NCBI GenBank assembly: GCA_036794765.1
Contig: DAIRGB010000001.1
Coordinates: 11,752-75,751, forward strand
Direction of reading: 5' to 3'
Source of the DNA: Patescibacteria group bacterium
Lineage (GTDB): Bacteria > Patescibacteriota > JAHJAL01
DNA length: 64,000 bases
Below the pieces are notes generated by a model. That model searched no databases. It saw only the letters and a program-made list of their open reading frames with translations, and was not told where the DNA came from. Made by a program: the position numbers and the translations under genes. Positions 5,504-63,486 of this stretch are shown here, one piece after another; the first letter of the stretch is position 1, and the number at the start of each line of letters is the position of its first letter.

Positions 5504-5550
5504 CCAAGTTATTCTTTTGATAAAGTTTTTTATAAAAATAAATAAAAATT

Positions 5551-6528: not shown

Positions 6529-6529
6529 T

Positions 6530-6608: not shown

Positions 6609-7403
6609 ATGCAAAGGTATTTCAAAATATTATGGCGGATTGCGCGGATGTCGTTGGCGACTAGTTTGATGTATAAAACTGATTGGATATTGGGGGTATT
6701 TACAACATTTTCATATTCAGGTTTGCAGATATTTTTTATTGCAATGCTTTTTAGTTCAGGGGGATTGACGAGAATTGTTGGTTTTAGTGTTTGGCAGATG
6801 GTTTTAGTTTTTATGTTTGGGCAGATAATATATTTTTTTGCATTTACTTTTATATTTGAAAATGTTGGTTTGTTTCGTTATAAGGTAATGCAAGGAGAAT
6901 TGGACCATTTTTTACTGAGGCCAATTTCGCCGGTGTTCTTGTTGTCATTTCAAAAATTTGGTTTGGTTGAGGCTTCGGCAATAATTACATATACTTTGGC
7001 GACGTTGATATATTTGTTTATTAGAACGGATGTGTTATTTTCTGAAACGCAATGGTTGACGATTGGTGTGATATTTATTGGTTCTTTGGTTTTGATGTCT
7101 TGTATTTATTGGATCGCCGGGTTGATATTTTTTTATTGGCCAAATTTTTTGGCAATATGGTGGATGTTAAATAATATTAGTGATGTGGCCAAATATCCTC
7201 GTAGGATTTATCCCTCAGCGATGCAATGGTTTTTAATATTTTTTATTCCATTATTTTGTATGGTAAATCCGCTTTATGATGTTATGGATGGATCATTTGA
7301 TTTTTGGCGCGGTTTGGATATTTTTTTAGTAATAACGATGTTTGTTTTAATATATTTAATGATGTGGAAAGATGGTTTGAGACGTTATTCTTCGGCGGCT
7401 TAA
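6609..7403 (+). CDS. ABC-2 family permease of subtype B. The ORF track starts at 6582. The start proposed here is the Met of MQRYFKILWRIARMS, which matches the paralog N-termini.
   Basis: Conserved N-terminus KILWRIARMS...Y and C-terminus GLRRYSSAA. Six hydrophobic helices. Confidence 0.65.
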   Translation: MQRYFKILWRIARMSLATSLMYKTDWILGVFTTFSYSGLQIFFIAMLFSSGGLTRIVGFSVWQMVLVFMFGQIIYFFAFTFIFENVGLFRYKVMQGELDHFLLRPISPVFLLSFQKFGLVEASAIITYTLATLIYLFIRTDVLFSETQWLTIGVIFIGSLVLMSCIYWIAGLIFFYWPNFLAIWWMLNNISDVAKYPRRIYPSAMQWFLIFFIPLFCMVNPLYDVMDGSFDFWRGLDIFLVITMFVLIYLMMWKDGLRRYSSAA

Positions 7404-7482
7404 ATAGTCAATTAACAATGAATAATTAACAATTAAAAATTGATTGTAAAAAGTAATATTTTCCAAATAATTTTTTTAAAAA

Positions 7483-8274
7483 ATGAAAAAATATAAAAGA
7501 CTGTTTAGTAATTTTATTCAGATGAATCTGGCTTATCGCGAGAATTTTTTTGCTGAGTTGGTGATGCGGTCACTGGGGTTTTTTATTATGATTTTTTTGT
7601 GGAAAGCGGTGTATGCACAGAGGACATCGATTCAGGGATTTAGTTTCAATGAATTGCTAACATATTTTTTGATTGTGGAAGTTTTTCGACATTTGTTGGA
7701 AGCGAAAACTTTTTTGGAGATTAAAGAGGGGGTGCAAAAGGGGACGATTGCCAATTACTTATTATTACCGATTGATTCGATTAAAATATATTTTTCCCGG
7801 ACATTGGCGAGGAGTATTTTGTCGTTTGTCTTTTTTATTGTGCCGGTTTTATTTTTGATATATGGGACGAAAATTTTTGTGTTGCCACCGAGTATTTGGT
7901 ATTCGTTGATGACAATCGGGATGGGAATTATTGCGATGTTTATGAGTTTGTTGTTGTACACGATATTTGGCAGTATAGCTTTTTGGACGGTGGAAACGGG
8001 AAATATTATTTGGGCGTTCAATTTTATTGTGATGTTTTTGGCGGGAAAGATGATCCCTTTACAGTTTATGCCTGGTTTAATTAAAACCTTAGTTGGATAT
8101 TCGCCATTGGCGTCATTGTTCAATTTGCCGGCGACTTTGTATTTGGGAAAATTATCTTATACAGAAGCTTTGATCCAATTTGGGGTGCAGATTGGTTGGC
8201 TTTTGATTCTTTATTTGTTACTCAGATGTATTTGGCGAAAAGGGCTTAGGAGAATGGAGTTGGTGGGAGGGTGA
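7483..8274 (+). CDS. ABC-2 family permease of subtype A. Its N-terminus NLAYRENFFAELVM resembles that of the permease at 3712-4542.
   Basis: 263 aa, polytopic. C-terminus GLRRMELVGG. Confidence 0.6.
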   Translation: MKKYKRLFSNFIQMNLAYRENFFAELVMRSLGFFIMIFLWKAVYAQRTSIQGFSFNELLTYFLIVEVFRHLLEAKTFLEIKEGVQKGTIANYLLLPIDSIKIYFSRTLARSILSFVFFIVPVLFLIYGTKIFVLPPSIWYSLMTIGMGIIAMFMSLLLYTIFGSIAFWTVETGNIIWAFNFIVMFLAGKMIPLQFMPGLIKTLVGYSPLASLFNLPATLYLGKLSYTEALIQFGVQIGWLLILYLLLRCIWRKGLRRMELVGG

Positions 8275-8275
8275 A

Positions 8276-8355
8276 AAACTTATCAAACTTATCAAACATA
8301 GCAAACAAAAACCCTTATAAACTCTTTAAAACACTTTTAAACTCTTAGAAACTAT
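8276..8355. repeat. Phased roughly 10-bp A-tract repeat spacer.
   Basis: ATCAAAC, AGCAAAC, CTTATAAACT, CTTTAAAACA, CTTTTAAACT and CTTAGAAACT follow one another at about 10-bp spacing. Confidence 0.5.
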
Positions 8356-8364
8356 CATTATGAT

Positions 8365-9159
8365 ATGCAAAAGTATGGAAAAATTTTGTGGCGGATAATC
8401 AGAATGGCGGTGATGCGGGATATGATGTATAGGATAGATGTTTTTATAAGCTCGCCCGCGGCTTTTTTTTATATTTTGATAAATATTTTTTGGATAAAAT
8501 ATTTATTTGGGGCGATCGGAGATCAAGAAATTGCCGGGTATAACAATTGGGATTTTTATCTGCTGTTGTTTACTGGACAAATTGGGGCGGCGTTGTTTTT
8601 TGCCTTTATACAAAAGAGTTCCAATGCTGTTCGAGAGCAAATATTGAAAGGAGATTTGGATTATTTTTTGATAAAACCGGTTGCAAGTTGGTTTTTGATA
8701 AGTTTTCAGGACATTAATTTCCGAGTGTTTGTTTCTATTATTGGATATTTGGTAATTGGGGTTCCTTGGATTATTGTTGCCGGGAATTATCATTTTAATA
8801 TTTGGCAGTGGATAAACATTGTTTTGATATTGGTTTTTTCATTTGTTCTATCATTTGCGGTGCGATGGATAGTAACTTTGTTAAGTTTTTTTTGGGATAG
8901 ATTTGATGCCGGGATATTTTTTATTGAGTCGTTGGAAAATGTAAGTTCCTTTCCAAAATCAATTTTTCCCGGGAGTTTGCAATTCATTTTTTTGTATATA
9001 TTGCCGATGGCAATGATAAATGCACCGATTTTTCAGGTAATTGACTATTCATGGAATATTAGTTTGTTGATTGAGATGATTGGGGTGATGATCATTTTTC
9101 TTCTATTGCTGGGGTTGATGTGGAGGTTTTCATTAAAGAAATATGGGTCGGCGGGGTGA
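8365..9159 (+). CDS. ABC-2 family permease of subtype B.
   Basis: N-terminus KILWRIIRMAVMRDMMY. C-terminus KKYGSAG. Polytopic. Confidence 0.65.
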   Translation: MQKYGKILWRIIRMAVMRDMMYRIDVFISSPAAFFYILINIFWIKYLFGAIGDQEIAGYNNWDFYLLLFTGQIGAALFFAFIQKSSNAVREQILKGDLDYFLIKPVASWFLISFQDINFRVFVSIIGYLVIGVPWIIVAGNYHFNIWQWINIVLILVFSFVLSFAVRWIVTLLSFFWDRFDAGIFFIESLENVSSFPKSIFPGSLQFIFLYILPMAMINAPIFQVIDYSWNISLLIEMIGVMIIFLLLLGLMWRFSLKKYGSAG

Positions 9160-9162
9160 GAG

Positions 9163-9252
9163 AAGCAAAAACTTAACAAACATATCAAACATATCAAACG
9201 TATTAAACACTTAGAAACGCTTTTAAACGCTTAAAAACACTTTGAAACTGTA
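9163..9252. repeat. Phased roughly 10-bp A-tract repeat spacer.
   Basis: AACATATCAAACATATCAAACGTATTAAACACTTAGAAACGCTTTTAAACGCTTAAAAACACTTTGAAACTG. It can be aligned with the spacers at 8276 and 10070. Confidence 0.5.
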
Positions 9253-9269
9253 ATATTTAAAATAAATTA

Positions 9270-10064
9270 ATGAAAAGTTATTGGAAAATATTTTGGCGGG
9301 TGGCGAAGATGTCGTGGATGGTGACGGCCAGTTATAAAATTGATCTATTGGTGGGTTATACTACATCATTTATTTATTTTTTGTCACACTTGGGAATGGT
9401 ATATATTTTATTTCAGATATCTGAAAATAAGACAATTGCTGGTTTTGGTCAATTTGAGTTTTATTTTATTTTCGGTTTGGTTGAAGTATTATGGTTTATT
9501 TGTTTTGGTTTCTTTTATATCAATTCAAATAAATTGATTGATCAAATAGTTGAAGGCAAAATTGATTTTCTTTTGTTAAAGCCAAAAAATAATTTATTTT
9601 TAGTGATTTTTCAAGAAATAAACTTGGACGATTTATTGGCGATGTTTTTTTATCTTTTTTTGACTTTGGGATTGGTGAATTACATGGATTGTTGGGAATG
9701 GTTGATCAATAATTTGTGGTCGATAATAATGGTAGAAATCTGTTCAATAATTTTACTGTTTCTTTTAATTTGGATTGGTTCGTTTATCAATTTTTATTGG
9801 CCGCGTTTTATGGTGTTTAGATTGATGGTGATACACAATTCTGATATTTCACAGTTTCCCAGGCAAATATACCCTAGGTGGATGCAAGTAATATTGATGT
9901 GGGTTTTTCCATTACTTTTGATGACTTCGCCAGTTTTTGATTTGTTTTCCGGGGGTTTAAATGGGTGGTTTTGGTTGAATGTTTTTCTAGAGATTGTTGC
10001 CTTGTCATTGATTTTCATTTTAATGTGGCGGGATGGTATTCGGAGATATTGTTCGGCGGGGTGA
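9270..10064 (+). CDS. ABC-2 family permease of subtype B.
   Basis: N-terminus KIFWRVAKMSWMVTASY. C-terminus IRRYCSAG. Polytopic. Confidence 0.65.
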   Translation: MKSYWKIFWRVAKMSWMVTASYKIDLLVGYTTSFIYFLSHLGMVYILFQISENKTIAGFGQFEFYFIFGLVEVLWFICFGFFYINSNKLIDQIVEGKIDFLLLKPKNNLFLVIFQEINLDDLLAMFFYLFLTLGLVNYMDCWEWLINNLWSIIMVEICSIILLFLLIWIGSFINFYWPRFMVFRLMVIHNSDISQFPRQIYPRWMQVILMWVFPLLLMTSPVFDLFSGGLNGWFWLNVFLEIVALSLIFILMWRDGIRRYCSAG

Positions 10065-10069
10065 GGGAG

Positions 10070-10160
10070 TGAAAAACATAACAAATTTATCAAACATATC
10101 AAACTTAGCAAACACTTAGAAACTCTTTTAAACTCTTTGAAACGCTTTTAAACTGTAATT
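10070..10160. repeat. Phased roughly 10-bp A-tract repeat spacer.
   Basis: ACAAATTTATCAAACATATCAAACTTAGCAAACACTTAGAAACTCTTTTAAACTCTTTGAAACGCTTTTAAACTG. Confidence 0.5.
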
Positions 10161-10168
10161 ATTAAAAA

Positions 10169-10966
10169 TTGATGAAGAAATATTTTAAAATATTTTGGCG
10201 GGTGGGGAGGATGAGTTTGATGCGGGATATGATGTATCCGGCTGATTTTTGGACGGGGAGTTTTTCGGGAATTGTGTTTATGGCTTCGCAAATGTTGTTG
10301 ATCTGGTTTTTATTTAAAACCAGTCAGTCGGAGACTATTGCGGGATATGACATGTGGCAGATTTATTTTGTATATGGAGTTTATAATTTTGTTGTTGGTT
10401 TGGCTTATGTCTTTTTGTTGAATAATTCTTGGTCGTTCACGAGTGGAATAATTGCTGGCTTGCTTGATCTGGATTTGATTAAACCGATAAATAGTTTTGT
10501 GGCATTGTATATGAAAGAATATGAAATGGTGGTGGAGGTGATTAGTGTATTGGTTTCGTTTTTCTTGAGTTTTTGGTTGGCGATAAGCGGCAGAGTTGAA
10601 TTGAATTGGACTCAGGTTGTTTTGATATTGGTGGTAATGTTACAATCTTTTTGCCTGTATTGTGTATTGTATATTATTAGTTCAGTAATTGAACTTTTTG
10701 TTAGCCGATTTTCGGTTTTAAGGTTTATGATGCATGAATTTGATGTGGTGACAAGTTATCCTCGGCGAATGTATCCGTTGGCGATGCGGTATATTTTGTT
10801 GTTTGTCTGGCCGTTTTTTATGATTGTTAGTCCGATTTATGATATTTTTGATCAAACGTTTGATTTTGAGAAAATATTTATTTGGTCGGGAGTGAACATT
10901 ATTTTTTTATTGATATTAATCTTGATGTGGACAAGTGGTTTGAAAAAATATTGTTCGGCGGGATAG
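10169..10966 (+). CDS. ABC-2 family permease of subtype B.
   Basis: N-terminus KIFWRVGRMSLMRDMMY. C-terminus LKKYCSAG. Polytopic. Confidence 0.65.
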   Translation: MMKKYFKIFWRVGRMSLMRDMMYPADFWTGSFSGIVFMASQMLLIWFLFKTSQSETIAGYDMWQIYFVYGVYNFVVGLAYVFLLNNSWSFTSGIIAGLLDLDLIKPINSFVALYMKEYEMVVEVISVLVSFFLSFWLAISGRVELNWTQVVLILVVMLQSFCLYCVLYIISSVIELFVSRFSVLRFMMHEFDVVTSYPRRMYPLAMRYILLFVWPFFMIVSPIYDIFDQTFDFEKIFIWSGVNIIFLLILILMWTSGLKKYCSAG

Positions 10967-38368: not shown

Positions 38369-39415
38369 ATGAATTATTGGTTGATTTTTCTGGTTGGTTT
38401 AGTGATGTCTTTGACGATAACGCCAATATTTCGTTGGTTGGCTTATAGATTCGGGATTGTGGATAAACCTGACAACAAAAGAAAACTTCACGCCAGAAGT
38501 GTAGCCTACCTTGGTGGCTTGGCTTTGTTTGTGGTTTTTTTGATCGAAATGTTTTTGTTTGTTGAATTAACAAGTAATATTTTGATGATGATTGGTGGTT
38601 TGATTTTGGTGGTTTTGATTGGCTTGGTTGATGATATTTACAAGTTGAAGCCTTGGCAAAAGTTTTTGGGTCATTTATTTGTTGGTTTTTTGTTGGTGAT
38701 TGGTGGAATCGGTATTCAATCTTTTCCTTTGCCTGATGGTGGCTATATCGGTTTAAATCAGTGGTTGGTGGAATTTTCTATTGGTGGAATATTGATAAAG
38801 TTTGCATTATTGTCGGGGGTATTTACGTTATTGTGGACGGTATTTTTGATAAATTCGGTGAATTTTTTGGATGGGTTGGATGGGTTGGCGGGAGGTATTT
38901 CTTTGATTGCATTTTTAATTATTTTTTCCTTGAGCTTATCCAAATACGTTAATCAATCTGATATTGCGGTTATTTCTGTGATTATGGTTGCGGCCTTGTT
39001 GGGATTTTTACCGTACAATTTACCATCTGCCAGTATATTTTTGGGTGATGCTGGTTCGATGATGCTTGGTTATCTTTTGGCTGTTTTATCGATCTTGTCT
39101 GGTGGAAAGGTGGCAACTTTAGTCTTGGTTTTAGGTGTGGTTATTTTAGATACTTTTTTAGTTGTAATTTCGAGAATTAGAAGTGGAAAAAAAATATGGT
39201 CGGCCGATCGCTTGCATATGCATCATCGTCTTTTAGACCGGGGAATAAAACATTGGCAAATATTATTTGGATATTATGCAGTGTCATTGGTTCTTGGTTT
39301 ATCAGCAGTACTAGTACCATCGAGCATTTTTAAGTTAGTGATTTGGTTTATTTTTATTATTATTTTTTTTATTTTTTCTTATTTGTTGATGGCCACTAAG
39401 AAGGTAACAAAATAA
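38369..39415 (+). CDS. WecA/TagO-family polyprenyl-phosphate N-acetylhexosamine-1-phosphate transferase (MraY/WecA superfamily).
   Basis: NSVNFLDGLDGLAGG. FLGDAGSMMLGY. DRLHMHHRLL. Ten or more transmembrane segments. Confidence 0.7.
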   Translation: MNYWLIFLVGLVMSLTITPIFRWLAYRFGIVDKPDNKRKLHARSVAYLGGLALFVVFLIEMFLFVELTSNILMMIGGLILVVLIGLVDDIYKLKPWQKFLGHLFVGFLLVIGGIGIQSFPLPDGGYIGLNQWLVEFSIGGILIKFALLSGVFTLLWTVFLINSVNFLDGLDGLAGGISLIAFLIIFSLSLSKYVNQSDIAVISVIMVAALLGFLPYNLPSASIFLGDAGSMMLGYLLAVLSILSGGKVATLVLVLGVVILDTFLVVISRIRSGKKIWSADRLHMHHRLLDRGIKHWQILFGYYAVSLVLGLSAVLVPSSIFKLVIWFIFIIIFFIFSYLLMATKKVTK

Positions 39416-39497: not shown

Positions 39498-39869
39498 ATG
39501 AATTACTTTGATCAAGATAAATTTAGAAATTTGGTGAGGGCTTTGCAGCAGATGGTTCGTTGTCCTCAGTGTGGCGGTGTTTTCAATGAACATGATGTGG
39601 AGTTGGTAGCTGGTATTGGCCAGGCATATTTTGTGAAGATGTCTTGTAGTAATTGCGGAATAAATGTTATGGCTTCTATGATGAATATGGACAAAAATAT
39701 AACCAAAAATACTGCGGTTTCGCCTTTTTCTTCAAACGCCCAGAAAAATCAATATCCGATAATCAAGGAAAACAAAATTCAAGAGGCTATTTCTGCCAAT
39801 GAATTGATCGGTTTGCACGATTATTTGAAGGATTTTACAGGTGATTTTAAATCGGTTTTTGGTAAGTGA
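39498..39869 (+). CDS. Hypothetical zinc-ribbon protein.
   Basis: CPQCGG...CSNCG Cys4 pattern. 123 aa. Confidence 0.45.
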   Translation: MNYFDQDKFRNLVRALQQMVRCPQCGGVFNEHDVELVAGIGQAYFVKMSCSNCGINVMASMMNMDKNITKNTAVSPFSSNAQKNQYPIIKENKIQEAISANELIGLHDYLKDFTGDFKSVFGK

Positions 39870-40816: not shown

Positions 40817-41311
40817 ATGAAGAAAAGTAAAAAAGTTTTTCAAGGGCAAAAAGATGGGGAAGAACTGATTATGATTTTTCGTAAGCATTGGTTTGGTATT
40901 ATTAAACCAATTTGTTTGTTTACGTTATTATTTGTGGTGTCGGTGTTGATATTGGTATATTGGTTTGATATTACGATAATGTTGATTGTTGGATTTGTGA
41001 TTTTATTGTTGGCGATTTTTTATTTTTTGTATAATTATTTGTTGTGGTGGCAGGATGTGTATATTTTGACCACTCAAAGAGTTATTGATGTTGATCAGAA
41101 ATCTTTATTTCATCGGGTTGTGTCGGAAGCGGAGTTAAAAAATATTCAAGACACAAATTATGAGGTTGAAGGATTTTGGCGGACAATGTTGAATTTTGGG
41201 CGCGTCAAGATTCTTACTGCATCTTCTGGTCAGAGTATTGTTTTTGAGGATATATCCAATCCTCATAAAGTGCAAGAAATGATAATCCAAGCTAAAGATG
41301 TATTAGGTTAA
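40817..41311 (+). CDS. Membrane protein with a bacterial PH (YdbS/DUF304-like) domain.
   Basis: Two transmembrane segments followed by a bPH-like beta-rich domain. Confidence 0.5.
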   Translation: MKKSKKVFQGQKDGEELIMIFRKHWFGIIKPICLFTLLFVVSVLILVYWFDITIMLIVGFVILLLAIFYFLYNYLLWWQDVYILTTQRVIDVDQKSLFHRVVSEAELKNIQDTNYEVEGFWRTMLNFGRVKILTASSGQSIVFEDISNPHKVQEMIIQAKDVLG

Positions 41312-42673
41312 TGAATCGTTTAGGCTTTGGATTCGTAAGTATTCTATGGCGGGAGATATTTTGCGATCAATTGGTTCGGAGAGGATGAGAAATTCCTTGG
41401 TTTTTTTGATGTCAAGGACGTCTTTCCCAGGGCGGAGGAATTTTAACATTTTTAGTTGATTTTGAACAATATTCTTGAGATCAAAAATATTTTTGAAGGA
41501 TGTGTGGCTAGTAAAGACGCCACTTGTAAGACTTATTGGTGGCGGGGTTGTGTCGGAACCAATATTCCGAAAAATAATTTGTGAGCCCTTGATTGGATTT
41601 TGTTGGATATTTTCGATGGTTTGATCAGATAATTGATATTCTAGTTGCAACATTTCCAGGATGTGAATGGCCAAAAGAGGAATTTGGTTATTTTTCAATT
41701 GTAATTTTGTAACCATAGGAACGGAAGCAGTGAGGCGGGGATTGCACTCGATGAAGAAATGTTGACCGGTTTGAGAATCAATAACAAAATCTAATCCAAA
41801 AAAGCCGTTGTAGTTTAATTTTTGGAGATAAACACCAAATTTTTTCACATCAGAGTAGAGTCGGGATAGATTTTTAAAAACGTTTAGATTGGCAGAATAT
41901 ATATTTCCGCAAGTTCCACCGGGGGAGGGGTTGAGGTCGGGGAGGTTGGTTATTTGAAAGAAAGGTGGTTGGATGACGATTTGAGCTTTGTTGACACTAG
42001 GGTGGAGTATACAGGCATTGAGTGAATAGGTTGGTCCGTCGATTTTTTGGCTGATTTTGGTGGGATAATTGAGATAGTTGTTTTTGACTAATTGAAGTTG
42101 GTCATCTGAAGAGACCAAAAATGTGGAACTACCAGCAAATCCTCTGGGAAATTGGAGAAAAAATTGTGGTCCGTATTTTTGGGAGTAATTTTGATAGGAT
42201 ATTTCCTTTAATTTTTCGATTGAGTAATCGGGTTGAGGGAGAGATAATTCGGTTATGATTTGGGAAAAATTTATTTTATTTTCGATTTGGCGGTTGAGTT
42301 TAGCGGGATTGGCAAGCAATTGCCAGCGATTATTTTGACAAATTTTTTCCAACGAAGGAGACGGTTTATAAACTAAAATATTGGATTGATATTGGTTAAA
42401 TGATGTTATGTGCTTGATAGTAGCTGGATGATTTAGCAACACGTTGGTACTTCGTCTTTTGAGAAGATCTTTGGTGTTATTTAGTAGAGAAAAATGATTA
42501 ACAGAAGGGGGGAAAAGTTTGGTTATTGGATGATCGTCGTAACTGATGATTTTGAGAGGGAAAATTTCTTCTAATCCTAAGGCATCTTTTGGGAAAGTGA
42601 CAGCAAAAAAAATATCGTCAACGTATTGTCGGGTAATAAATTCTTTTAGGTTGGTTTGGTCTTTGATAAACAT
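41303..42673 (-). CDS. ATP-grasp family ligase.
   Basis: GFFGLDFVIDSQTGQHFFIECNPRLTAS. The E-x-N-P-R motif is characteristic of the ATP-grasp fold. Confidence 0.55.
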   Translation of the reverse strand: MFIKDQTNLKEFITRQYVDDIFFAVTFPKDALGLEEIFPLKIISYDDHPITKLFPPSVNHFSLLNNTKDLLKRRSTNVLLNHPATIKHITSFNQYQSNILVYKPSPSLEKICQNNRWQLLANPAKLNRQIENKINFSQIITELSLPQPDYSIEKLKEISYQNYSQKYGPQFFLQFPRGFAGSSTFLVSSDDQLQLVKNNYLNYPTKISQKIDGPTYSLNACILHPSVNKAQIVIQPPFFQITNLPDLNPSPGGTCGNIYSANLNVFKNLSRLYSDVKKFGVYLQKLNYNGFFGLDFVIDSQTGQHFFIECNPRLTASVPMVTKLQLKNNQIPLLAIHILEMLQLEYQLSDQTIENIQQNPIKGSQIIFRNIGSDTTPPPISLTSGVFTSHTSFKNIFDLKNIVQNQLKMLKFLRPGKDVLDIKKTKEFLILSEPIDRKISPAIEYLRIQSLNDSLT

Positions 42674-42684
42674 AGAAATTGGGA

Positions 42685-43782
42685 TTATTTTTTGATGTTT
42701 TGTTGCGACAAGATTGTGTCAATGTCTTGAGTATTTTCGGCAAAATATTCGATGATTTTTGATGTGGATAAGATGGTATTGTGTTCAGTGCCGGAAATGA
42801 TTACAACTGTTGATTGTATGTGATAATACTCAATAAATTCTAGGGCAGCAGCAAGCGATGCGGCTCCTTCAGGTGATGAATTTATTTGATTTTGTTGTAA
42901 TTTTTGATGAGCTTCTAGAATTTTTTGGTTATTGACCCAGTGGATTAGTCCTTGAGGTATTGATTTTATGACCGGAATATATATTTTTTGATTAGAGTAG
43001 TCGGCTGGATTGATTTTTTGATGTAATTTTAAATATATTTCTTTGGCTCTTTTTGGTTTGGTTAGCGAGTTGTTTCCAGCGAGTTGTTTTTCGGCGGAAA
43101 AATTTTGATGGAATAACTCTTTGGCGAGAAAAATTTGTTGACCTGATTGAACACCGACGATTTGGGGTTTGGGGATAATAGGATTTTTGTAGTAATAATT
43201 GTGCAGGCCGAGAATTGAAGCACCAGATGTGCAGTAGGAGAATATTGCCTGGCAGTTTGGTAGTTGATTATTGATTTCCCAACCTAGAGTTTCAAAACCG
43301 GTAATAGCTCGGTTGTCATGGGAAGGGTTTAGTAGAGGAATGTGATATTTTCGACTGATATATTTGGCTAATCGGTAGGCTTTTTTAGATTTAATAATTA
43401 TATGTGGATTTTTGGTGATGATTTGAGAAATTTTGTTGGCAGGAGTGGTGGGGGAAATGAGAATAATTGGCTTAATGTCGTTTTTTTGGCAAAAAGCGCA
43501 GCAAGAGATGGCGGCATTGCCAGAAGAAGACAGGACACAGTATTTTGATTCTATCTTTTTTAGGTGTGATATTTGGTAGGCCAAAGCCCTATCTTTAAAT
43601 GAACCATTGGGATTTAGATCTTCTCGTTTAAGAAATAGTTTTGAATTTTTATTATTTGTTTTTAAAAGATAGGAATGATCTTCTAAGGGGGTGTTGCCTT
43701 GGCCCAAATCAAGCTTGTTTTCCTTTTTGAATTTTTTGATAAAACCTGGATAGTTCCAGAATTTTTGCATGTTTTTTTTCAT
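42685..43782 (-). CDS. Fold-type II PLP-dependent enzyme, threonine synthase-like.
   Basis: GNTPL substrate-loop motif and lysine motif GSFKDRA. 365 aa, matching short-form ThrC. Confidence 0.6.
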   Translation of the reverse strand: MKKNMQKFWNYPGFIKKFKKENKLDLGQGNTPLEDHSYLLKTNNKNSKLFLKREDLNPNGSFKDRALAYQISHLKKIESKYCVLSSSGNAAISCCAFCQKNDIKPIILISPTTPANKISQIITKNPHIIIKSKKAYRLAKYISRKYHIPLLNPSHDNRAITGFETLGWEINNQLPNCQAIFSYCTSGASILGLHNYYYKNPIIPKPQIVGVQSGQQIFLAKELFHQNFSAEKQLAGNNSLTKPKRAKEIYLKLHQKINPADYSNQKIYIPVIKSIPQGLIHWVNNQKILEAHQKLQQNQINSSPEGAASLAAALEFIEYYHIQSTVVIISGTEHNTILSTSKIIEYFAENTQDIDTILSQQNIKK

Positions 43783-43866
43783 ATGAATAATTTGATAGAA
43801 AATTTTTTTTAATGTGTTAATATGGAAAAGAACTTATTGTTTTCAAAATTTATAGGAGAAATAAAT

Positions 43867-44022
43867 ATGAAATGTATGGATTGTGGTGAAGAGTTGATTT
43901 TGGATTTGGATGAAGAAGAATATCAAGTTGGTGATGTGTTGGAGTGCGAGTATTGTGGGGCGGAAATGGAGATTTTGCAATTGGATCCAGTGGTGTTGGG
44001 CTTGATAAATGAAGAAAAGTAG
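43867..44022 (+). CDS. LysW-like zinc-ribbon mini-protein (amino-group carrier protein family) with a non-canonical C-terminus.
   Basis: CMDCGEELILDLDEEEYQVGDVLECEYCGAEMEILQLDPVVLGL aligns by eye with LysW CPECGAEL...GE.V.CE.CGAELEV.GLDPL.L. AGGAG ribosome-binding site 7 nt upstream of the ATG at 43867. Confidence 0.5.
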   Translation: MKCMDCGEELILDLDEEEYQVGDVLECEYCGAEMEILQLDPVVLGLINEEK

Positions 44023-44023: not shown

Positions 44024-45490
44024 TCAATTGTTTGGATTTTCGTAAATTCTTTCCAGGATGGATTTTAGTGAATATTTGTTTTTTAAGTGTGACTCTTGAA
44101 AATTGGCGCCGGCCGGGGACATCAAAATAATGTCGCCGGTTTTGGTGTTTTTTAAGGCCAATTTTAAGGTATCGGTTAGATCATTGTTTTTATGAATTTT
44201 TACTGATTTTTCTTTTTGATTTAAAAGTGATTTTTCCAGCGAATTTGAAGTTGTTCCTGGTAAAAGATAAAGGTTTTTTATTCTTTGATTAATGATTTTT
44301 GCTAAAAGATTGTGACTAACTTTTTTATGATTGCCCCCGATGATTAAATGAATATTTTTGTTGGGGAAAGAGTTAATGGCGGAAATTGTTGATGTTGGCG
44401 TACTAGATTTTAGATCATCGATTATATCTACGCCTTTTATTTGGGCGATTTTTTCTAAACGGTGGGGGATGCCTTGAAAATTATTTAGTACTTTTGTGAT
44501 AGTAGTTGCTGAAATATTGAATTTGGAGATTGCTCCCAGGGCTGCCAAAATATTGGCTGGATTGTGTGAGTTTTCTAAATATGGATTGGAAATGGATAAC
44601 CATAATTTGTTTTTATAATAAATTTTGTTTTTTTCTATATATAGGTTTTGACTTGATTTCTTTTTTAGAGAGAAAGGAATAATGGGGGCGGGGAAGCGGT
44701 GAAGGTTTTTTTTGATAATTGAATTGTCGATATTAATTATTGCTATGTCGTTTTTGTTTTGGTATTTGAACAAGCTGAATTTCGTTTCTTGATAATTTTT
44801 GTATGATTTGTGTTCGGAAATATGGTTGGGGTAGATATTTGTCAAAACTGCAATATGAGGGCTGGATTGGAGGTCAATGGTTAGTTGTCGGTTGCTGATT
44901 TCCAGGACAAGAATATCTGTTGGCTTGATAGATCTGATTTGGGGTAGTATTTGTTCATAAATACTTCTTTCGTTTCCGGAAGTAAACACTTTGTATCCTC
45001 CTGCTTGGAGAATTTTGGTTATGATTGTGGTGGTTGTAGTTTTTCCATTGCTTCCAGTAATACCGATGATTGGGCATGGGGTTAAGTCAAAGTATAATTT
45101 GGTTAAACTGGAAACGGGGATTTTCATATCGATTGCTTTTTGCAAGTGAGGAAAGTTTGGTGGATAAAGATACCAGGCTTGAGTAAGAAAGATAAGATCG
45201 GCATGGTGTATATTTTGCAGATAGTTTTCTTTGAGATTCAATTTTACTTTAGAGTTTATTATTTTTTTTAGTTTTTTGGATCTTTCTTGAGCCGATAAGT
45301 TGGTGTGAGTTTGTTTAAAACGATGACGGAATGATCGAAGATCTGGTTGAAAATCATGTAGAGTGATTTGATTAATGTTGTTGTCGATTAAAAATTCAGC
45401 AATCGCTGTTCCTTCTGATCCGGAGGCGCCAATAATGTGAATATTCTTTCCGCGAATTGTGTTTATGTATTTTTCAATATTGTCTGACAT
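44024..45490 (-). CDS. murD: UDP-N-acetylmuramoylalanine--D-glutamate ligase.
   Basis: N-terminal Rossmann GKNIHIIGASGSEG. Mur ligase P-loop IIGITGSNGKTTT. GIPHRLE. LIIGGNHK. ILMSPAGANFQ. Confidence 0.75.
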   Translation of the reverse strand: MSDNIEKYINTIRGKNIHIIGASGSEGTAIAEFLIDNNINQITLHDFQPDLRSFRHRFKQTHTNLSAQERSKKLKKIINSKVKLNLKENYLQNIHHADLIFLTQAWYLYPPNFPHLQKAIDMKIPVSSLTKLYFDLTPCPIIGITGSNGKTTTTTIITKILQAGGYKVFTSGNERSIYEQILPQIRSIKPTDILVLEISNRQLTIDLQSSPHIAVLTNIYPNHISEHKSYKNYQETKFSLFKYQNKNDIAIINIDNSIIKKNLHRFPAPIIPFSLKKKSSQNLYIEKNKIYYKNKLWLSISNPYLENSHNPANILAALGAISKFNISATTITKVLNNFQGIPHRLEKIAQIKGVDIIDDLKSSTPTSTISAINSFPNKNIHLIIGGNHKKVSHNLLAKIINQRIKNLYLLPGTTSNSLEKSLLNQKEKSVKIHKNNDLTDTLKLALKNTKTGDIILMSPAGANFQESHLKNKYSLKSILERIYENPNN

Positions 45491-45687: not shown

Positions 45688-46497
45688 ATGAAAACAAAAA
45701 AACAGTTGTTAAAAGGATGTAATTTAAGACAGAAAATTATAAGTTTGTCAAGTTTGATGGTTACTTTTACTTTGTTATTGGTTGGATGTAACCAGACAAA
45801 TGATTATGCAAATCAGCAAGGTTATTATCAGGCTCAACCGGATCAGAATAGCGGTTATTATCAATATCCGCAACAATTTGGAGCGATGCAGCCAATGAAT
45901 AACAATACTCCGAAATCTGGAAATGCTGGTGGTACTGGTACTGGTAGCTCAAAAAAGAGTGCGCCTAGTTATGGAGGTGGAGGAACAGGACAGTCGGGTT
46001 ATCAAGCGGTGGGAAACATGTGGAATAATATGTGGGGCGGTTCTTCTGATTCGGGATATTATAGTGATCAGGGTTATTATGACCCAGGGTATTACGGGGG
46101 TTATGATTCGGGTAATTATGGTTATGGTGCTGGGGATCATTATGGTAGTGGTTATAGCGATGATTATGCTAATCAAACCTATCAGGATATTTATGAGAAT
46201 AGGGCCGCAACAAATCAGGAAATAAATGATAATACTTCCCAGTGGCTTTACGAGGGGGAAGCGAATTATATCAATCCTGAGACAGGAGAATTGGAGTCTC
46301 ATGATTATACTCAGGGAAATGATTGGTATCAAGATTCCTCTGGAGATCAATGGCAGACGAGTGATTCAAGTTATACTCCGGAATATTCAACCGAAACTCA
46401 GATGGAACAATATGGAGGTTGGGCGAGTGATTACAGTGCTAGTGATTATGGATATGATTCTGGAAGCTATGATTCTGGTAGTTATGATTATGAGTAA
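45688..46497 (+). CDS. Low-complexity Tyr/Gly/Ser/Asp/Gln-rich secreted lipoprotein.
   Basis: Lipobox LLVGC. Repetitive YY, GYY and SGSYD motifs throughout. Confidence 0.5.
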   Translation: MKTKKQLLKGCNLRQKIISLSSLMVTFTLLLVGCNQTNDYANQQGYYQAQPDQNSGYYQYPQQFGAMQPMNNNTPKSGNAGGTGTGSSKKSAPSYGGGGTGQSGYQAVGNMWNNMWGGSSDSGYYSDQGYYDPGYYGGYDSGNYGYGAGDHYGSGYSDDYANQTYQDIYENRAATNQEINDNTSQWLYEGEANYINPETGELESHDYTQGNDWYQDSSGDQWQTSDSSYTPEYSTETQMEQYGGWASDYSASDYGYDSGSYDSGSYDYE

Positions 46498-54999: not shown

Positions 55000-55074
55000 A
55001 CAATTAACAATGAATAGAGACATTTTTTCTGTAAATTATTAATTTTCTTTGTTAATTGTTTATTTTGTGTGTGT

Positions 55075-55145
55075 TCCGGGATCGTCTAATGGTAGGACAG
55101 CGGCCTCTGAAGTCGTCAATCTTGGTTCGAATCCAAGTCCCGGAG
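55075..55145 (+). tRNA. tRNA-Gln with anticodon CTG.
   Basis: Acceptor stem TCCGGGA pairs with TCCCGGA. Anticodon loop CTCTGAA. T-arm CTTGGTTCGAATCCAAG. Discriminator G. Confidence 0.75.
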
Positions 55146-56726
55146 TTTTCCTGAACGAAGCATCTTGTGTGAATGGCTATTGACCATATTGGTGCTTGAT
55201 GTCACCTGTTCGAATTTGTTTTTGGTATTTTCGGATAAAATTTCTATATTCGAATTTCGGAGTATATTGGTTAGCTTGGCTAACATTTCAAATGGTTTAG
55301 ATAGCTTTACAGATAGAATTCCGTTTTCAATTTTCATTTCATCAAAGAGGACTTTAAGTAGTTCTCTTTTGTTGTCTGGTAATCCATTTTCAAATATTAT
55401 ATTTGCCTGTTGAGTCAATTCATAAATTGAAATGCCAAGCTCGTAATAAGCATTTTCTTTTCTGGTTAGTCTATCAATGGCTCTGGAAATGTCTTCTTTT
55501 TCTTTCGTGAATTTTTGGTTTAATTCTTTGTAAGTATTATCAGAAATAAGACCATCTAATTTGTCTATGTATAAAGTGTCTAGTCTTTGAGAAAGTTTAC
55601 TGTATTGGATGTGAAGTTGTTTGGCTGATGCCTCCCTAGTGACTATTTCTTCTTTGTGGTCTTCTTTTAATGACATTCTAATCCATTCATCAATTTTAGG
55701 ACTGGTTATTTTGAATCTATCGGTAATATCTGAGACTTGTTCTTCGATTTCGGCTTGTTTTGCCCATGTTTTTTGTTGGCAATTATTTTTGTGATTGCAG
55801 TGACCATATACTATCCCTTTTTGGATTTCCCAAGTAATGGTCCCATTGCATTCTTTGCAGGTCATTAATTTTTGGAAGACATAATGGTGTTTATTGTATT
55901 TTGGAGTTGTTTTGGAAGTAAGGTTTAGTTGGACTTTTTCAAATACTTCTTCTGTGACAATTGGCTCATGTTTTCCAGGATATATTTCATTTTTCCAAAG
56001 GATTTTTCCACTATAGAATGGTCTGGTAAGGATATTATGAAGCGTGCTTTTTGCCATTCTTTTACCTTTAATTGTTCTGAGTCCTTGTTTAAACATGATT
56101 TGACTTAGTTTCTTTAAAGAGTAATTTCCTGTCGCATACAGTTCAAATAACTGTTTGATTAGAGGTGCAATATTTTCATCAATAACTTGGATTTTGTGAC
56201 CTTTTTCTCCTATAGTCTTGTATCCCATTGGTGCTTTATTTGGTAGCCAGCCTTGAGATATTTTTTCTTTAAAACCTTTTTGCACTTCTTCGGACAAATT
56301 ATTGGTGTAAAATCGGGCAATGGCGACTTTCATGTCCCAAACTAGATTTTCGTGTGCTTTGGTATTTTTATTGAGAACAAAAGATTCTTTGACAAAATGG
56401 ACCTCGTGTTTGGGATTGCTTTGGACCCAGTCATTGATAATTGCTGCGTCTTTAAGGTTTCTGGTTAGTCTGTCTATCTTTTCGCATACTATAACTGAAA
56501 TTTGGTTTTGTTTTAGATATTTTAGCATTTCTTGAAAGGTGTCTCGGATTTTTTTGCCACTGGCTGATTCAGAAATACTGAATATTTTGTTTATTCGGAA
56601 TTTATTTTGAGAATAGTCTTTTAATAGTTTTTCTTGAGCTGGCAAGGAATAACCTGTTTCTTCTTGGTCCTTAGATGACACTCGGCAATATAAGACGGAT
56701 TTTGGCATATTGTTGATAGTTTTCAT
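55116..56726 (-). CDS. Large serine recombinase (phage-integrase type).
   Basis: Resolvase catalytic domain VLYCRVSSKDQ...VIVCEKIDRLTRN. Recombinase domain. Zinc ribbon CKECNGT...CNHKNNC. C-terminal coiled coil. The 3' end overlaps tRNA-Gln. Confidence 0.8.
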   Translation of the reverse strand: MKTINNMPKSVLYCRVSSKDQEETGYSLPAQEKLLKDYSQNKFRINKIFSISESASGKKIRDTFQEMLKYLKQNQISVIVCEKIDRLTRNLKDAAIINDWVQSNPKHEVHFVKESFVLNKNTKAHENLVWDMKVAIARFYTNNLSEEVQKGFKEKISQGWLPNKAPMGYKTIGEKGHKIQVIDENIAPLIKQLFELYATGNYSLKKLSQIMFKQGLRTIKGKRMAKSTLHNILTRPFYSGKILWKNEIYPGKHEPIVTEEVFEKVQLNLTSKTTPKYNKHHYVFQKLMTCKECNGTITWEIQKGIVYGHCNHKNNCQQKTWAKQAEIEEQVSDITDRFKITSPKIDEWIRMSLKEDHKEEIVTREASAKQLHIQYSKLSQRLDTLYIDKLDGLISDNTYKELNQKFTKEKEDISRAIDRLTRKENAYYELGISIYELTQQANIIFENGLPDNKRELLKVLFDEMKIENGILSVKLSKPFEMLAKLTNILRNSNIEILSENTKNKFEQVTSSTNMVNSHSHKMLRSGKLRDLDSNQD

Positions 56727-57341: not shown

Positions 57342-58352
57342 TTATTTGTGTTCAGGCGCAGGATATTCTTCTGTAAATCGAGGGTGAGTATAGTCTAGTT
57401 CTGGGTAGAGGCAGTTTTTTTCTCCTCTGGTTTCGATAATAATTTTTTCGGAGATTAACTCCTTGTAGGCAGTATTGAAGGTTTTTTCTCCAATATCATA
57501 TCCGTATTCTTTGATTTTGCCGTAAAGTTGGGTTTTGTTCATTTTTTCAGTGTTTTTCTGGAGAATTTCGACGATTGCATTTTTAGAATCAATTTTTTTG
57601 CTGGTCTTGATTTCGTTGTAGCCAGCAAATTCAAAGTCTAGAAAATCCTCATTATTTTTTATTAGCAGTTTGAAACTATTAAGCTCTTGCTGTTGTCTGA
57701 GTTTAGTTTGTTCAATCTCTAAACTGTCTTCGACTTTCGTTACAGCCAAGTGACAATCTATGGATGCTAGAATATCGGATGAACCTCGCATGTTTTGGGA
57801 GTTGGAGGATTTATTGTGCATATTCTGTTTGCGATGGTGGTGGGTCACTATAACAGTGATACCATGTTTCGTCATTTTCTTTAGATAAGCAAATACCTCG
57901 GCCATCTTTTTTGCATCGTTTTCATCGGCGTTGTGTATTCTTACCAATGAATCGAAGATGACTACTTTGTAATCGTTTTCCAAACAATACTCGATTAAGG
58001 TTTGGCATACATTTTCTATTTTTATACCAAGTATTGAAGTGACGGATATTGGTAGTTCAGGGGATGTCTGTAGTTTGACGAATCTATCATGGAGCAGTCT
58101 TTCACCATTTTCTTCGTCTATAATTAGGATTTTGGATTGTGCGGTGCGAAATTGTCCAAAGACAATGTCTCCAATTGCTATTTTTTTGGCCATGTATAAG
58201 AATAGCCATGTTTTAAAACAACTCGGTTGGCCGGAGATAACTGTAATGCCATTAGTTGGTATTAGGTATTCTACAACCCAATTTAATGGTGGGAATTCCT
58301 TGGTTAATAGCTCTTTTAATGGAATAACGTGCTTGCTAAAAATGTTTGTCAT
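57342..58352 (-). CDS. RecA-fold ATPase (RepA/AAA_25-like) with a C-terminal winged-helix domain. It is a candidate replication protein of the element.
   Basis: Deviant Walker A SGQPSCFKT. Walker B KVVIFDSLVRIH. Conserved TVIVTHHHRK. Confidence 0.5.
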   Translation of the reverse strand: MTNIFSKHVIPLKELLTKEFPPLNWVVEYLIPTNGITVISGQPSCFKTWLFLYMAKKIAIGDIVFGQFRTAQSKILIIDEENGERLLHDRFVKLQTSPELPISVTSILGIKIENVCQTLIEYCLENDYKVVIFDSLVRIHNADENDAKKMAEVFAYLKKMTKHGITVIVTHHHRKQNMHNKSSNSQNMRGSSDILASIDCHLAVTKVEDSLEIEQTKLRQQQELNSFKLLIKNNEDFLDFEFAGYNEIKTSKKIDSKNAIVEILQKNTEKMNKTQLYGKIKEYGYDIGEKTFNTAYKELISEKIIIETRGEKNCLYPELDYTHPRFTEEYPAPEHK

Positions 58353-61800: not shown

Positions 61801-63486
61801 ATGGCAAAAAAAGATTATACAAACTGGGACAGAAAAGACTTAATTAAAGAGATTGAGCAACTTCGCAAACGCAAGAAATATGGGCTTGTTTGGGAAGAAA
61901 AGCCGGAAAATGTTGTTGAGCAATGCAAAACCGAATTACCAGTTTTAGAAGAAGTCAAAGACAAAGAAATAATTACCGATCCCGACAAACCAGTAAATTT
62001 ATTGATTGAGGGCGACAATTATCATGCTCTTTCTGTCTTGAATTACACTCACAAAGGTAAAATTGATGTTATTTATATTGATCCGCCATATAACACAGGG
62101 GCAAGAGATTGGAAATATAACAATGATTATGTTGATATAAATGATCAGTGGAGACATAGCAAATGGTTATCGTTCATGGAAAAAAGATTAAAGCTTGCCA
62201 AAAATCTGCTCAAAAAAAATGGTGTTTTAATTTGTACGATTGATAAAAATGAGCAAGCTAATCTCGGGGTTTTGTTGCAAGAAATTTTTAATGGAAAAGA
62301 AATAGTATGTGTTACGATCATCCATAATCCTGGCGGTATTCAAGGTAAAAACTTTTCTCATACAAACGAATTTGCTTATTTTATTCATCCTCAAAATGGT
62401 AATTTTATATCAACTATTGCTAGAGATGATGTACCACCGACAGCTTTTCGAGATTGGGGAAAAGAAAGTTCAAAAAGAGAAGCGGCGAAAACTTGTTTTT
62501 ATCCAATTTTAATTAAAGACGAATCTATAGTTGGATTTGGAGGAGTTTCTTTAGATGATTTTCACCCAAAAGGCTCAAACATATTACGAAAAGACGGAAT
62601 TATTGAGGTTTACCCCGTTGATCAAAAAGGCGTTGAACGAAAATGGCGTTTTGGTCGAGAAACCGTTGAGGATATTAAGGAAGAGCTGATTTGCAAAAAG
62701 GTAAAAGGTAAATATTCAATATTCAGAGAGAAAAAAGATTATCGATGGAAAACTGTTTGGACTGAAACAAAATACAATGCAAATGTATATGGAACAAAAT
62801 TACTTAACAATATTATTGAAGCAAAATTTCCTTATCCCAAATCATTATATGCAGTAATGGATTGCGTAAAGGCAGTTATACACGATAAACAAAATTCAAT
62901 AGTGTTAGATTTTTTTGCTGGATCTGGTACGACAGGTCACGCTGTTTTAGAACTTAACAAAACAGATAACGGAAATCGAAAATTTATTTTGTGTACAAAC
63001 AATGAAGACAACAACGGCGAAGGAACAAAAATAGCAGACGACATGTGCTATCCAAGAATAGAAAAAGTAATAAATGGCTATAAAGGTTTGCTAGACGGGA
63101 AAAAATACCAAGGCTTAAATGGAAATTTAAAATACTTTCGCACAACATTTGTATTTGCAGACCCAACAGATAAAAACAAAATTGCTCTAACCGAAAAAGC
63201 AATGGAAATGCTTTGTGTAAAAGAGGATACTTTTGGAGAAGTAAAATCAACAAAGCAATACAAGATTTTCAGAAACAAGAAGCGATATACTGGCATTGTT
63301 TTTGATCATCAAGCGATAAATGATTTTAAAAAAGAAATTGCTAAGATTGACGGCAAATTCAGTCTTTATATTTTCTCGCTTGGCGACGATACTTTTGATG
63401 AGGAGTTTGAAGATATGAAGAAGAAAGTAAAATTATCACCCATACCAGAGGCGATACTTCGAGTTTATCGCAGAATATTTAAATAA
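61801..63486 (+). CDS. mod: Type III restriction-modification Mod subunit, a beta-class N6-adenine or N4-cytosine DNA methyltransferase.
   Basis: Motif IV IDVIYIDPPYNTG precedes motif I DFFAGSGTTGHAV. Confidence 0.75.
   Translation: MAKKDYTNWDRKDLIKEIEQLRKRKKYGLVWEEKPENVVEQCKTELPVLEEVKDKEIITDPDKPVNLLIEGDNYHALSVLNYTHKGKIDVIYIDPPYNTGARDWKYNNDYVDINDQWRHSKWLSFMEKRLKLAKNLLKKNGVLICTIDKNEQANLGVLLQEIFNGKEIVCVTIIHNPGGIQGKNFSHTNEFAYFIHPQNGNFISTIARDDVPPTAFRDWGKESSKREAAKTCFYPILIKDESIVGFGGVSLDDFHPKGSNILRKDGIIEVYPVDQKGVERKWRFGRETVEDIKEELICKKVKGKYSIFREKKDYRWKTVWTETKYNANVYGTKLLNNIIEAKFPYPKSLYAVMDCVKAVIHDKQNSIVLDFFAGSGTTGHAVLELNKTDNGNRKFILCTNNEDNNGEGTKIADDMCYPRIEKVINGYKGLLDGKKYQGLNGNLKYFRTTFVFADPTDKNKIALTEKAMEMLCVKEDTFGEVKSTKQYKIFRNKKRYTGIVFDHQAINDFKKEIAKIDGKFSLYIFSLGDDTFDEEFEDMKKKVKLSPIPEAILRVYRRIFK

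Follow-up and report, generated by a model that had tools for sequence, protein, structure and literature searches.

A 64,000-nucleotide stretch of a Patescibacteria genome (assembly GCA_036794765.1, contig DAIRGB010000001.1, positions 11,752 to 75,751; hereafter the window, with coordinates counted from its first nucleotide) carries a module of three genes, encoding a LysW-like zinc-ribbon mini-protein, a pyridoxal 5'-phosphate (PLP) enzyme of fold type II and an ATP-grasp ligase. The trio is conserved in about 70 species of the Candidate Phyla Radiation (CPR), and its place in the division and cell-wall (dcw) cluster is at the junction of murD and ftsW. The reading that we tentatively prefer, at somewhat less than an even chance, is that these genes constitute the core of a compact carrier-protein pathway in peptidoglycan precursor synthesis, to which a cytoplasmic NlpC/P60-like amidase has been added in most lineages.

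The three open reading frames (ORFs) of the module and their motifs (GNTPL, GSFKDRA and ECNPR) are as a preliminary description of this DNA had given them. The mini-protein (MKCMDCGEELILDLDEEEYQVGDVLECEYCGAEMEILQLDPVVLGLINEEK; 51 amino acids, 43867-44022, plus strand) is acidic, has cysteines at C3, C6, C27 and C30 and ends in LINEEK. The strong ribosome-binding site claimed for it can be read from the sequence as AGGAG at 43854-43858 on the same strand, 8 nt 5' of the ATG at 43867, and it is because of this position, together with the short N-termini of homologues, that the 51-residue form is favored over an alternative, longer ORF of 66 residues starting at 43822. Divergently from the mini-protein, and separated from it by an intergenic region of 84 nt (43783-43866) that presumably holds divergent promoters, lie the PLP enzyme (365 amino acids, 42685-43782, minus strand), with a GNTPL motif, the catalytic lysine in GSFKDRA, an SSSGNAA loop and an SGA phosphate loop, and, after a gap of 11 nt, the ATP-grasp ligase (456 amino acids, 41303-42673, minus strand), with an N-terminal pre-ATP-grasp domain and the catalytic E308-C-N310-P-R312 (ECNPR). 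Sigma-70-like matches in the intergenic region are weak on both strands (43764-43791 on the plus strand and 43846-43819 on the minus strand) and not significant in AT-rich DNA, a composition that also rendered the promoter and terminator scan uninformative.

The conservation of the module was analyzed in 79 loci from distinct GTDB species and in further metagenomic loci, all annotated with local hidden Markov models (HMMs); because the search patterns were built from nine sequences, Shapirobacteria are overrepresented in this sample. Almost all of the loci show the order mini(-) PLP(+) ATP-grasp(+). The mini-protein gene divergently abuts the PLP gene in 69 of the 71 distinct loci with enough upstream DNA (median gap, 40 nt), and two look-ups begun from mini-proteins, instead of from the ligase, recovered the same arrangement; since both lines agree, the adjacency cannot be attributed to chance, and the trio initially proposed from a single sequence proves to be a conserved unit in its relatives. 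The PLP and ATP-grasp genes share the same strand in 75 of the 79 loci and are separated by a median of -4 nt, which supports the operon surmised from their spacing in the window, and they are translationally coupled. Fusions of the PLP and ATP-grasp proteins also occur (P0013 and P0015; the PLP half of the fusion model is based on three sequences), as does a fusion of the ATP-grasp and NlpC/P60 proteins (P0020). Overall, the trio is kept together in at least five different flanking contexts, spanning Microgenomates, Peribacteria and unclassified CPR bacteria.

These contexts point consistently to the cell wall. The Shapirobacteria and Woesebacteria present the arrangement FtsI-MurE-(ATE_C-like)-MurC-MurA-MraY-[NlpC/P60-like]-mini-PLP-ATPgrasp-FtsW-MurG-FtsA-FtsZ, locus L007 reads Ddl-MurF-P60-MraY-x-mini-PLP-ATPgrasp-FtsW-MurG-FtsQ-FtsA-FtsZ, and L095 reads MurC-MurB-MurA-x-MurF-MraY-P60-mini-PLP-ATPgrasp-FtsW; five further loci (L018, L019, L093, L094 and L096) conform to (MraY)-P60-MurD-mini-PLP-ATPgrasp-(FtsW). 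A position in the dcw cluster between mraY or murD and ftsW-murG-ftsA-ftsZ is thus found in Shapirobacteria, Woesebacteria, L007, L095 and L096. The dcw cluster is fragmented and dispersed in the lineage of the window, and the module still abuts murD there (MurD-mini-PLP-ATPgrasp). In the window itself, MurD (44024-45490, minus strand; TIGR01087, 249.5 bits against a cut-off of 212) is convergent with the mini-protein, their stop codons lying 1 nt apart, and MraY (38369-39415, plus strand), identified through a phmmer match of the window ORF and carrying PF00953 in syntenic relatives, persists 2 kb away from the module as a leftover of the dcw cluster. The order MurD > mini < PLP > ATP-grasp recurs in L004, L015, L016, L018, L019, L094 and L096, and other lineages have MraY immediately ahead of the module. 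In the neighboring CPR MurDs, the counterpart of E. coli K348 is retained and D182 is replaced by N, a pattern that fits neither MurD nor MurD2. Conversely, the families of LysZ, LysY, LysJ and LysK (AA_kinase, Semialdhyde_dh, Aminotran_3 and M20) are absent from the 6-8 kb on either side of the Pfam-annotated loci, and no such genes, or ArgB/C/D/E-like ones, are present in the 64 kb of the window. The preliminary description had envisaged an amino-acid biosynthesis pathway; the dcw context next to MurD and the missing LysZ/Y/J/K genes speak against such a general role, and the former argues instead for cell-wall precursor chemistry.

Several observations on the surroundings of the module deserve mention in their own right. 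A membrane protein with a bacterial PH domain (40817-41311, plus strand) converges on the ATP-grasp gene with a 9-nt overlap, and this neighbor is kept in the lineage of the window (L001-L006 and L014-L017). Between MraY and L25 lies a second small cysteine-rich protein (39498-39869, plus strand; 123 amino acids, with CPQCGG and CSNCG), whose zinc-ribbon matches are weak and which has a counterpart of similar size in the same place in L001 (9735-10073) and L004 (9585-9935). Just past MurD, a 269-residue protein (45688-46497, plus strand) combines an N-terminal hydrophobic segment with an extended low-complexity stretch enriched in G, Y, S, D, Q and N, and yields no match in a Pfam scan. The module-adjacent MurD of the Peribacteria locus L019 (458-2509) is 683 residues long, with a DUF559 (endonuclease-like) domain inserted or fused at residues 491-597. 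The Shapirobacteria and Woesebacteria encode between MurE and MurC a protein of some 197 residues with weak resemblance to ATE_C (arginyltransferase; Fem/L-F-transferase fold), as in L009 (913-1512), L026 (2019-2612) and L098 (10169-10759), which may be an aminoacyl-tRNA-dependent branch transferase. Many GTDB records with a cluster of Shapirobacteria type (L023, L029, L032, L043 and others) are titled 'uncultured Gammaproteobacteria bacterium', and one (L087) 'Candidatus Methanoperedens sp.'; these titles are evidently wrong.

By sequence comparison, the mini-protein is genuinely homologous to the globular domain of LysW, but it is not a canonical LysW. It passes the gathering cut-off of the Pfam model for this domain (PF21344, 30.4 bits against 27), and a phmmer search against all PDB sequences returns significant matches to LysW only (Thermus 3wwl, E = 1.2e-5; Thermococcus 5k2m_E, E = 5.4e-5), with alignments running through ...LDPxxL and the next match at E = 0.37. 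On the other hand, it falls below the cut-offs of the full-length models TIGR01206 (lysW; 25.7 against 53.2) and NF041070 (carrier_LysW_Arch; 19.7 against 75), so that the match to the LysW/ArgW fold claimed at the outset holds for the globular domain and fails for the complete protein. The non-canonical tail is a trait of the whole family, which ends in [LIV]-x-E-[E/Q/T]-K (69 unique locus copies and 122 database copies) instead of EDWGE. The terminal lysine is found in 69/69 locus copies, 120/122 database copies and 167/167 filtered sequences, and in every complete sequence among the locus and database copies, and position -3 of the tail is E or D in identical proportions (69/69, 120/122 and 167/167). 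The length of the tail is similarly constrained: 152 of 167 sequences have 21 residues after the last CxxC, whereas Thermus LysW has 26.

A search with the 51-residue sequence by itself, limited by its word index, gave two near-identical proteins, and wider homologues had to be sought with a profile. Across 1.84 billion cluster representatives, a profile search finds 1047 LysW-like clusters. Among the best 150 of these clusters, 48 end in E-x-K and five in the canonical DWGE, the remainder having other acidic tails or two ribbons; these counts identify the E-E-K proteins as a distinct and large subfamily, which annotation pipelines label 'lysine biosynthesis protein LysW'. The mini-proteins have a median isoelectric point of 4.1, as opposed to 9.4 for the PLP enzymes, 9.0 for the ATP-grasp ligases and 9.5 for the NlpC/P60-like proteins, and FtsZ, FtsA and MurA from the same loci have medians of 5.0, 5.6 and 6.6; LysW relies on the same electrostatic logic of acidic carrier and basic enzymes with its partners. 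Two members of the 90% cluster of the mini-protein, with 338 and 615 residues, were considered as possible fusions and rejected, for they are unrelated GC-rich proteins brought in by a clustering artefact. The LysW-like superfamily at large (P0209-P0358) is far more diverse than LysW, with long acidic tails (...DDWDD, ...EEEWE, ...DWVE), two-ribbon proteins with basic tails and a tandem-ribbon protein (P0211) ending in EEEK.

The ATP-grasp ligase appears fully equipped for catalysis, since the fold retains its conserved lysine and the E-x-N ligands of Mg2+, and E130, K132, E308, N310 and R312 are invariant. Its affiliation is less conventional. HMM searches return no RimK, LysX or ArgX match, and the best matches lie below their cut-offs (PRK06524, 100 against 684; PF02655, 23.0 against 23.2); the idea of a carrier put forward in the preliminary description stands, and its analogy with LysX does not. 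A placement in the CarB/PurK family, which the same description had contemplated as the contrary outcome, is not borne out either: the CPSase, PurK and PC models give at most 26 bits, there is no equivalog-level match to a carboxylase or PurK, and a profile search of the PDB finds only weak matches to biotin carboxylase, PurK and CPS. Structurally, the ligase shares the three-domain architecture of CarB, PurK and biotin carboxylase, but PylC, BesA, PGM1 and 8ynd match equally well, and scores are lower against the ligases that activate protein carboxylates (LysX, 16.5; RimK, 15.3; TTL, 12). The best structural neighbors (PylC, BesA and PGM1) activate small-molecule carboxylates and acylate lysine or peptide amines. 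All the homologues found belong to CPR bacteria, the closest being 93% identical and encoded in a Patescibacteria (CPR) metagenome-assembled genome. A distant homologue (24% identity) in Komeilibacteria (L091, 5506-10588) follows an 807-residue protein with a Ddl-like region and has no mini-protein or PLP gene nearby; it may belong to a different cell-wall ATP-grasp cluster.

The PLP enzyme likewise preserves an intact fold type II (PF00291, 119 bits), with K63, S86, G88, N89, S186, G187 and E305 invariant and with the lysine of GSFKDRA, the SSSGNA loop and the phosphate loop conserved among its homologues. Its initial portrayal as threonine-synthase-like is accurate insofar as ThrC is the nearest neighbor in profile comparison (92.6 bits, against 79.5 for threonine dehydratase and about 61-66 for serine and aspartate racemases), but the enzyme lies far below the ThrC equivalog cut-offs (TIGR00260, 51.1 against 167; best ThrC PRK model, 71.4 against 303), and threonine dehydratases and Ser/Asp racemases lie equally near; nor does the enzyme reach the IlvA model (71.3 against 379). 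The N-S-x-N-P-x-R segment, which we take to be the phosphate-binding site of ThrC for O-phosphohomoserine, is not conserved: in a profile alignment to B. subtilis ThrC, LVNSVNPYRLEGQKT aligns with LrpstDdsallGyet, and the N, S and R are not retained. Close fold-type-II neighbors include SbnA, CmnB, Fn1220 and CysM, together with PLP-dependent aspartate and serine racemases.

A fourth component accompanies the trio outside the lineage of the window. A small conserved upstream gene ('x179') encodes an NlpC/P60-like cysteine peptidase, recognizable by GIDCSG...H and devoid of an obvious signal peptide, in 70 of 96 loci and in all lineages but that of the window. The PF00877 model is passed by L018 (59 bits), L019 (70.7), L093 (24.3) and the fusion P0020 (70.6); the Shapirobacteria copies, at 15-20 bits against a cut-off of 23, carry GIDCSG and are linked to the other copies by jackhmmer. 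Enzymes of the NlpC/P60 type typically cut bonds between gamma-D-Glu and a diamino acid.

We suggest that these proteins may carry out a cycle of loading, modification and release on the terminal lysine of the carrier, supplying a peptidoglycan building block that is possibly a D-amino acid, a proposal we regard as plausible without granting it even odds. The ATP-grasp ligase would activate a free amino acid by converting one of its carboxylates into an acyl phosphate, the side-chain carboxylate of Glu or Asp fitting best, and would then amidate with it the epsilon-amino group of the terminal lysine, in a reversal of the polarity of LysW chemistry. Several considerations favor this mode of loading. 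A PLP enzyme requires a free alpha-amino group, which canonical LysW chemistry would block; the best structural neighbors of the ligase acylate amines of this kind; and NlpC/P60 enzymes, with the bond specificity given above, pair with ATP-grasp-like synthetases in glutathionylspermidine synthetase/amidase. Moreover, the SxGN loop of fold-type-II enzymes presumably binds the alpha-carboxylate of the substrate, and its conservation here suggests that this group is free as well and, therefore, that the tether would be the side-chain carboxyl of Glu or Asp. With both alpha groups free, the tethered amino acid could be racemized or beta-replaced by the PLP enzyme, and the NlpC/P60 amidase would free the product and regenerate the carrier. 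The product would in turn supply a neighboring Mur ligase, and because MurD, the D-Glu ligase, is a recurring neighbor, D-Glu is the most economical guess; the cycle would then amount to an ATP-driven, one-way conversion of L- to D-Glu. In its most explicit form, with the lysine epsilon-amine loaded with the side chain of L-Glu (or L-Asp), the PLP enzyme acting as an epimerase and a gamma-D-glutamyl NlpC/P60 enzyme freeing only the D-form for MurD, the scheme is rather improbable. On this same view, the module might even replace MurD in those lineages that lack murD at the module locus.

A number of points weigh against this interpretation. The lineage of the window has no NlpC/P60 gene within the 64 kb, and MurD is not adjacent to the module in Shapirobacteria, L007 or L095. 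The available comparisons do not single out a racemase, a lyase or a beta-replacement activity for the PLP enzyme, and the attachment atom (the lysine epsilon-NH2, the lysine alpha-COOH or the glutamate gamma-COOH) is itself a matter of inference. Furthermore, a D-Glu route involving four proteins and the consumption of ATP would be costly in comparison with MurI, and we know of no fold-type-II PLP enzyme acting in this manner on a protein-tethered amino acid.

The same genes can be read in other ways. The enzymes could act on soluble cell-wall substrates, with the zinc ribbon as a regulator, scaffold or pseudo-substrate instead of a carrier; for instance, a fold-type-II racemase might make a D-amino acid that the ATP-grasp ligase incorporates into a dipeptide or adds to the Lys3 epsilon-amine of the UDP-MurNAc-peptide, much like Asl(fm)/Rac in D-Asp branching, or like Alr/Ddl. 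Under this scheme, the ...Glu-Lys-COOH tail of the mini-protein would mimic the D-iGlu-L-Lys-COOH end of the UDP-MurNAc-tripeptide. We consider this explanation unlikely on balance, but it must be taken seriously: the module does sit beside Mur ligases, PLP-dependent Asp/Ser racemases are among the close structural and sequence neighbors of its PLP enzyme, Shapirobacteria-type clusters contain no Ddl, MurD or MurF within 8 kb on either side, and the ATE_C/Fem-like gene in these same clusters suggests branched peptides. Nonetheless, it leaves unexplained the LysW-type fold, the fixed length of the tail and its invariant terminal lysine, as well as the pairing of basic enzymes with a very acidic mini-protein. 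Neither does it sit easily with L007, which has a canonical Ddl besides the module, or with the presence of MurD alongside the module in the lineage of the window, L018, L019, L094 and L096, and the joining of synthesis and hydrolysis in the fusion of ATP-grasp and NlpC/P60 suits a cycle of loading and unloading better than a one-way ligase. A carrier could also operate with the canonical polarity of LysW, if the ATP-grasp ligase activated a carboxylate of the mini-protein (the lysine alpha-COOH or the gamma-COOH of the glutamate at -3) and attached to it the amino group of a substrate. The PLP enzyme would then catalyze a beta-replacement from Ser or O-phospho-Ser, in the manner of SbnA, CmnB or CysM, onto the tethered molecule or the lysine epsilon-amine, to give a diamino-dicarboxylic acid for position 3 of the stem. 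The homology of the carrier to LysW, the conserved Glu at -3 and the proximity of the PLP enzyme to SbnA, CmnB, Fn1220 and CysM, the last of which uses the C-terminus of the carrier CysO, are all in keeping with such a route. Even so, in structure the ligase resembles LysX, RimK and TTL less than it does ligases of small-molecule carboxylates, a blocked alpha-amine would stop PLP action on the tethered residue, and the invariant terminal lysine is less well accounted for, all of which makes this polarity fairly improbable.

Two further explanations carry little weight. Small zinc ribbons are widespread and match HMMs promiscuously, giving many weak hits, and synteny within the lineage of the window could be inherited without functional meaning; it is thus conceivable that the mini-protein is functionally unrelated to the enzymes, either as a division-related zinc ribbon or as a graspetide-like peptide with an E(-3)-K(-1) lactam, and merely shares their promoter region. 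An adjacency that outlasts the rearrangement of everything else, across at least five flanking contexts, makes this very unlikely. Genuine LysW-dependent biosynthesis of lysine or arginine, implied by the LysW name given by the pipelines, by the match to the Pfam LysW domain and in part by the preliminary description, is hardly credible given the failure of both TIGR01206 and NF041070, the missing EDWGE tail, the dcw context and the absence of a LysX/RimK-type ligase and of LysZ/Y/J/K from any annotated neighborhood.

To our knowledge, the only settings in which carrier-protein amino-acid chemistry (LysW/AmCP) has been described are the biosynthesis of lysine and arginine and a few secondary-metabolite pathways, and our full-text literature searches turned up no account of this module, nor of any LysW-like gene within the dcw clusters of CPR bacteria. 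What we report is a descendant of LysW with a different and strictly conserved reactive end, recruited together with three unrelated enzymes into the most conserved cell-envelope gene cluster of bacteria, over a large part of the CPR. If our preferred reading of a carrier-protein pathway is correct, the module would represent a new step in peptidoglycan precursor synthesis and, in the explicit L-to-D version given above, the first carrier-protein step in that process. It would also explain why the label 'lysine biosynthesis protein LysW' is so widely and wrongly given to proteins of organisms unable to make lysine, offer a handle, testable in E. coli, on the cell-wall chemistry of uncultivated ultra-small bacteria and provide a new pair of small protein and ligase for chemistry at protein C-termini.

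Beyond the module, the window, with a GC content of about 35%, presents an extreme GC skew (between +0.3 and +0.49 per 2-kb interval) that is independent of gene strand. As a consequence, Q, N, P, I and K are frequent, and G, E, D and V scarce, in the products of the minus-strand genes (ATP-grasp, PLP, MurD and a methyltransferase). Published data on the Microgenomates order UBA1400 show this same disparity of G and C between strands (Kadnikov 2020, PMC7143001). The skew falls to 0.14-0.2 between 55074 and 63486, a region that is probably an integrated mobile element; it comprises a tRNA-Gln (55074-55146) whose 3' end is overlapped by the gene of a large serine recombinase (55116-56726, minus strand), an AAA_25 protein (57342-58352, minus strand) and an N6/N4 DNA methylase (61801-63486). 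Elsewhere (2729-10966), six tandem ABC2_membrane_6 permease paralogues (4520-5323, 6582-7403, 7483-8274, 8365-9159, 9270-10064 and 10169-10966) are accompanied by two ABC ATPases (2729-3715 and 5551-6528).

Among known systems, the module most invites comparison with LysW/ArgW, represented by LysW-LysX-LysZ-LysY-LysJ-LysK of Thermus, Sulfolobus and Thermococcus and by AmCP in Streptomyces. The two share a homologous zinc-ribbon domain in a very acidic carrier, basic partner enzymes, an adjacent ATP-grasp gene and a plausible hydrolase for release. Nonetheless, the module fails four of five testable defining features of LysW, namely the equivalog score, the tail, a LysX-type ligase and LysZYJK neighbors. 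In the canonical tail (EDWGE), the gamma-carboxyl of the terminal Glu carries the substrate, whereas the tail of the module is five residues shorter and ends in an invariant lysine (E-E-K). Its ligase belongs to the structural group of biotin carboxylase, PurK, PylC and BesA, not to that of RimK and LysX; its modifying enzyme is a fold-type-II PLP enzyme, where LysW systems use a kinase, a reductase and a fold-type-I aminotransferase; its candidate release enzyme is NlpC/P60, and not an M20 peptidase; and it resides in the dcw cluster instead of a lys/arg operon.

Partial parallels can be drawn with several other systems. PylC joins a carboxylate to the epsilon-amine of free lysine, and BesA and MfnD use the gamma-carboxyl of Glu, but these enzymes share about 10% identity with the ligase, act on free small molecules as acceptors and have no connection with the cell wall. 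Glutathionylspermidine synthetase/amidase (GspSA) combines an ATP-grasp-like synthetase with a CHAP amidase acting on the same amide bond, and thus resembles the pairing, sometimes as a fusion (P0020), of a ligase with an amidase of the NlpC/P60 superfamily; its substrates, however, are glutathione and spermidine, and neither a carrier protein nor a PLP enzyme takes part. The association of a carrier protein with a fold-type-II PLP enzyme has its precedent in CysO-CysM of Mycobacterium, as the carrier cycle has in LysW/X/K, although CysO is a ubiquitin-like thiocarboxylate carrier and not a zinc ribbon, and no sulfur chemistry of the CysO-CysM or SbnA/CmnB kind is implied here. In the cross-bridges of Enterococcus and Lactococcus, the ATP-grasp enzyme Asl(fm), together with aspartate racemase, links a D-amino acid, through its side-chain carboxyl, to a lysine epsilon-amine, providing another instance of an ATP-grasp ligase paired with a racemase gene in cell-wall synthesis. 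There, the acceptor is the UDP-MurNAc-pentapeptide, no carrier protein is involved and the racemase is PLP-independent; moreover, our HMM searches with the ATP-grasp ligase returned no match to an Asl(fm)-type family.

A further analogue of the proposed outcome is MurD2/MurL of Xanthomonas, an ATP-driven and unidirectional L- to D-Glu route encoded next to murD (PMC8788868). MurL epimerizes Glu after its ligation to UDP-MurNAc-L-Ala, with no PLP, carrier protein or ATP-grasp partner, and the CPR MurDs differ from MurD2 in keeping the residue equivalent to K348 of canonical MurD. In both cases, an unconventional, ATP-consuming, one-way route would lead to the D-Glu of the stem peptide from genes located beside a murD.

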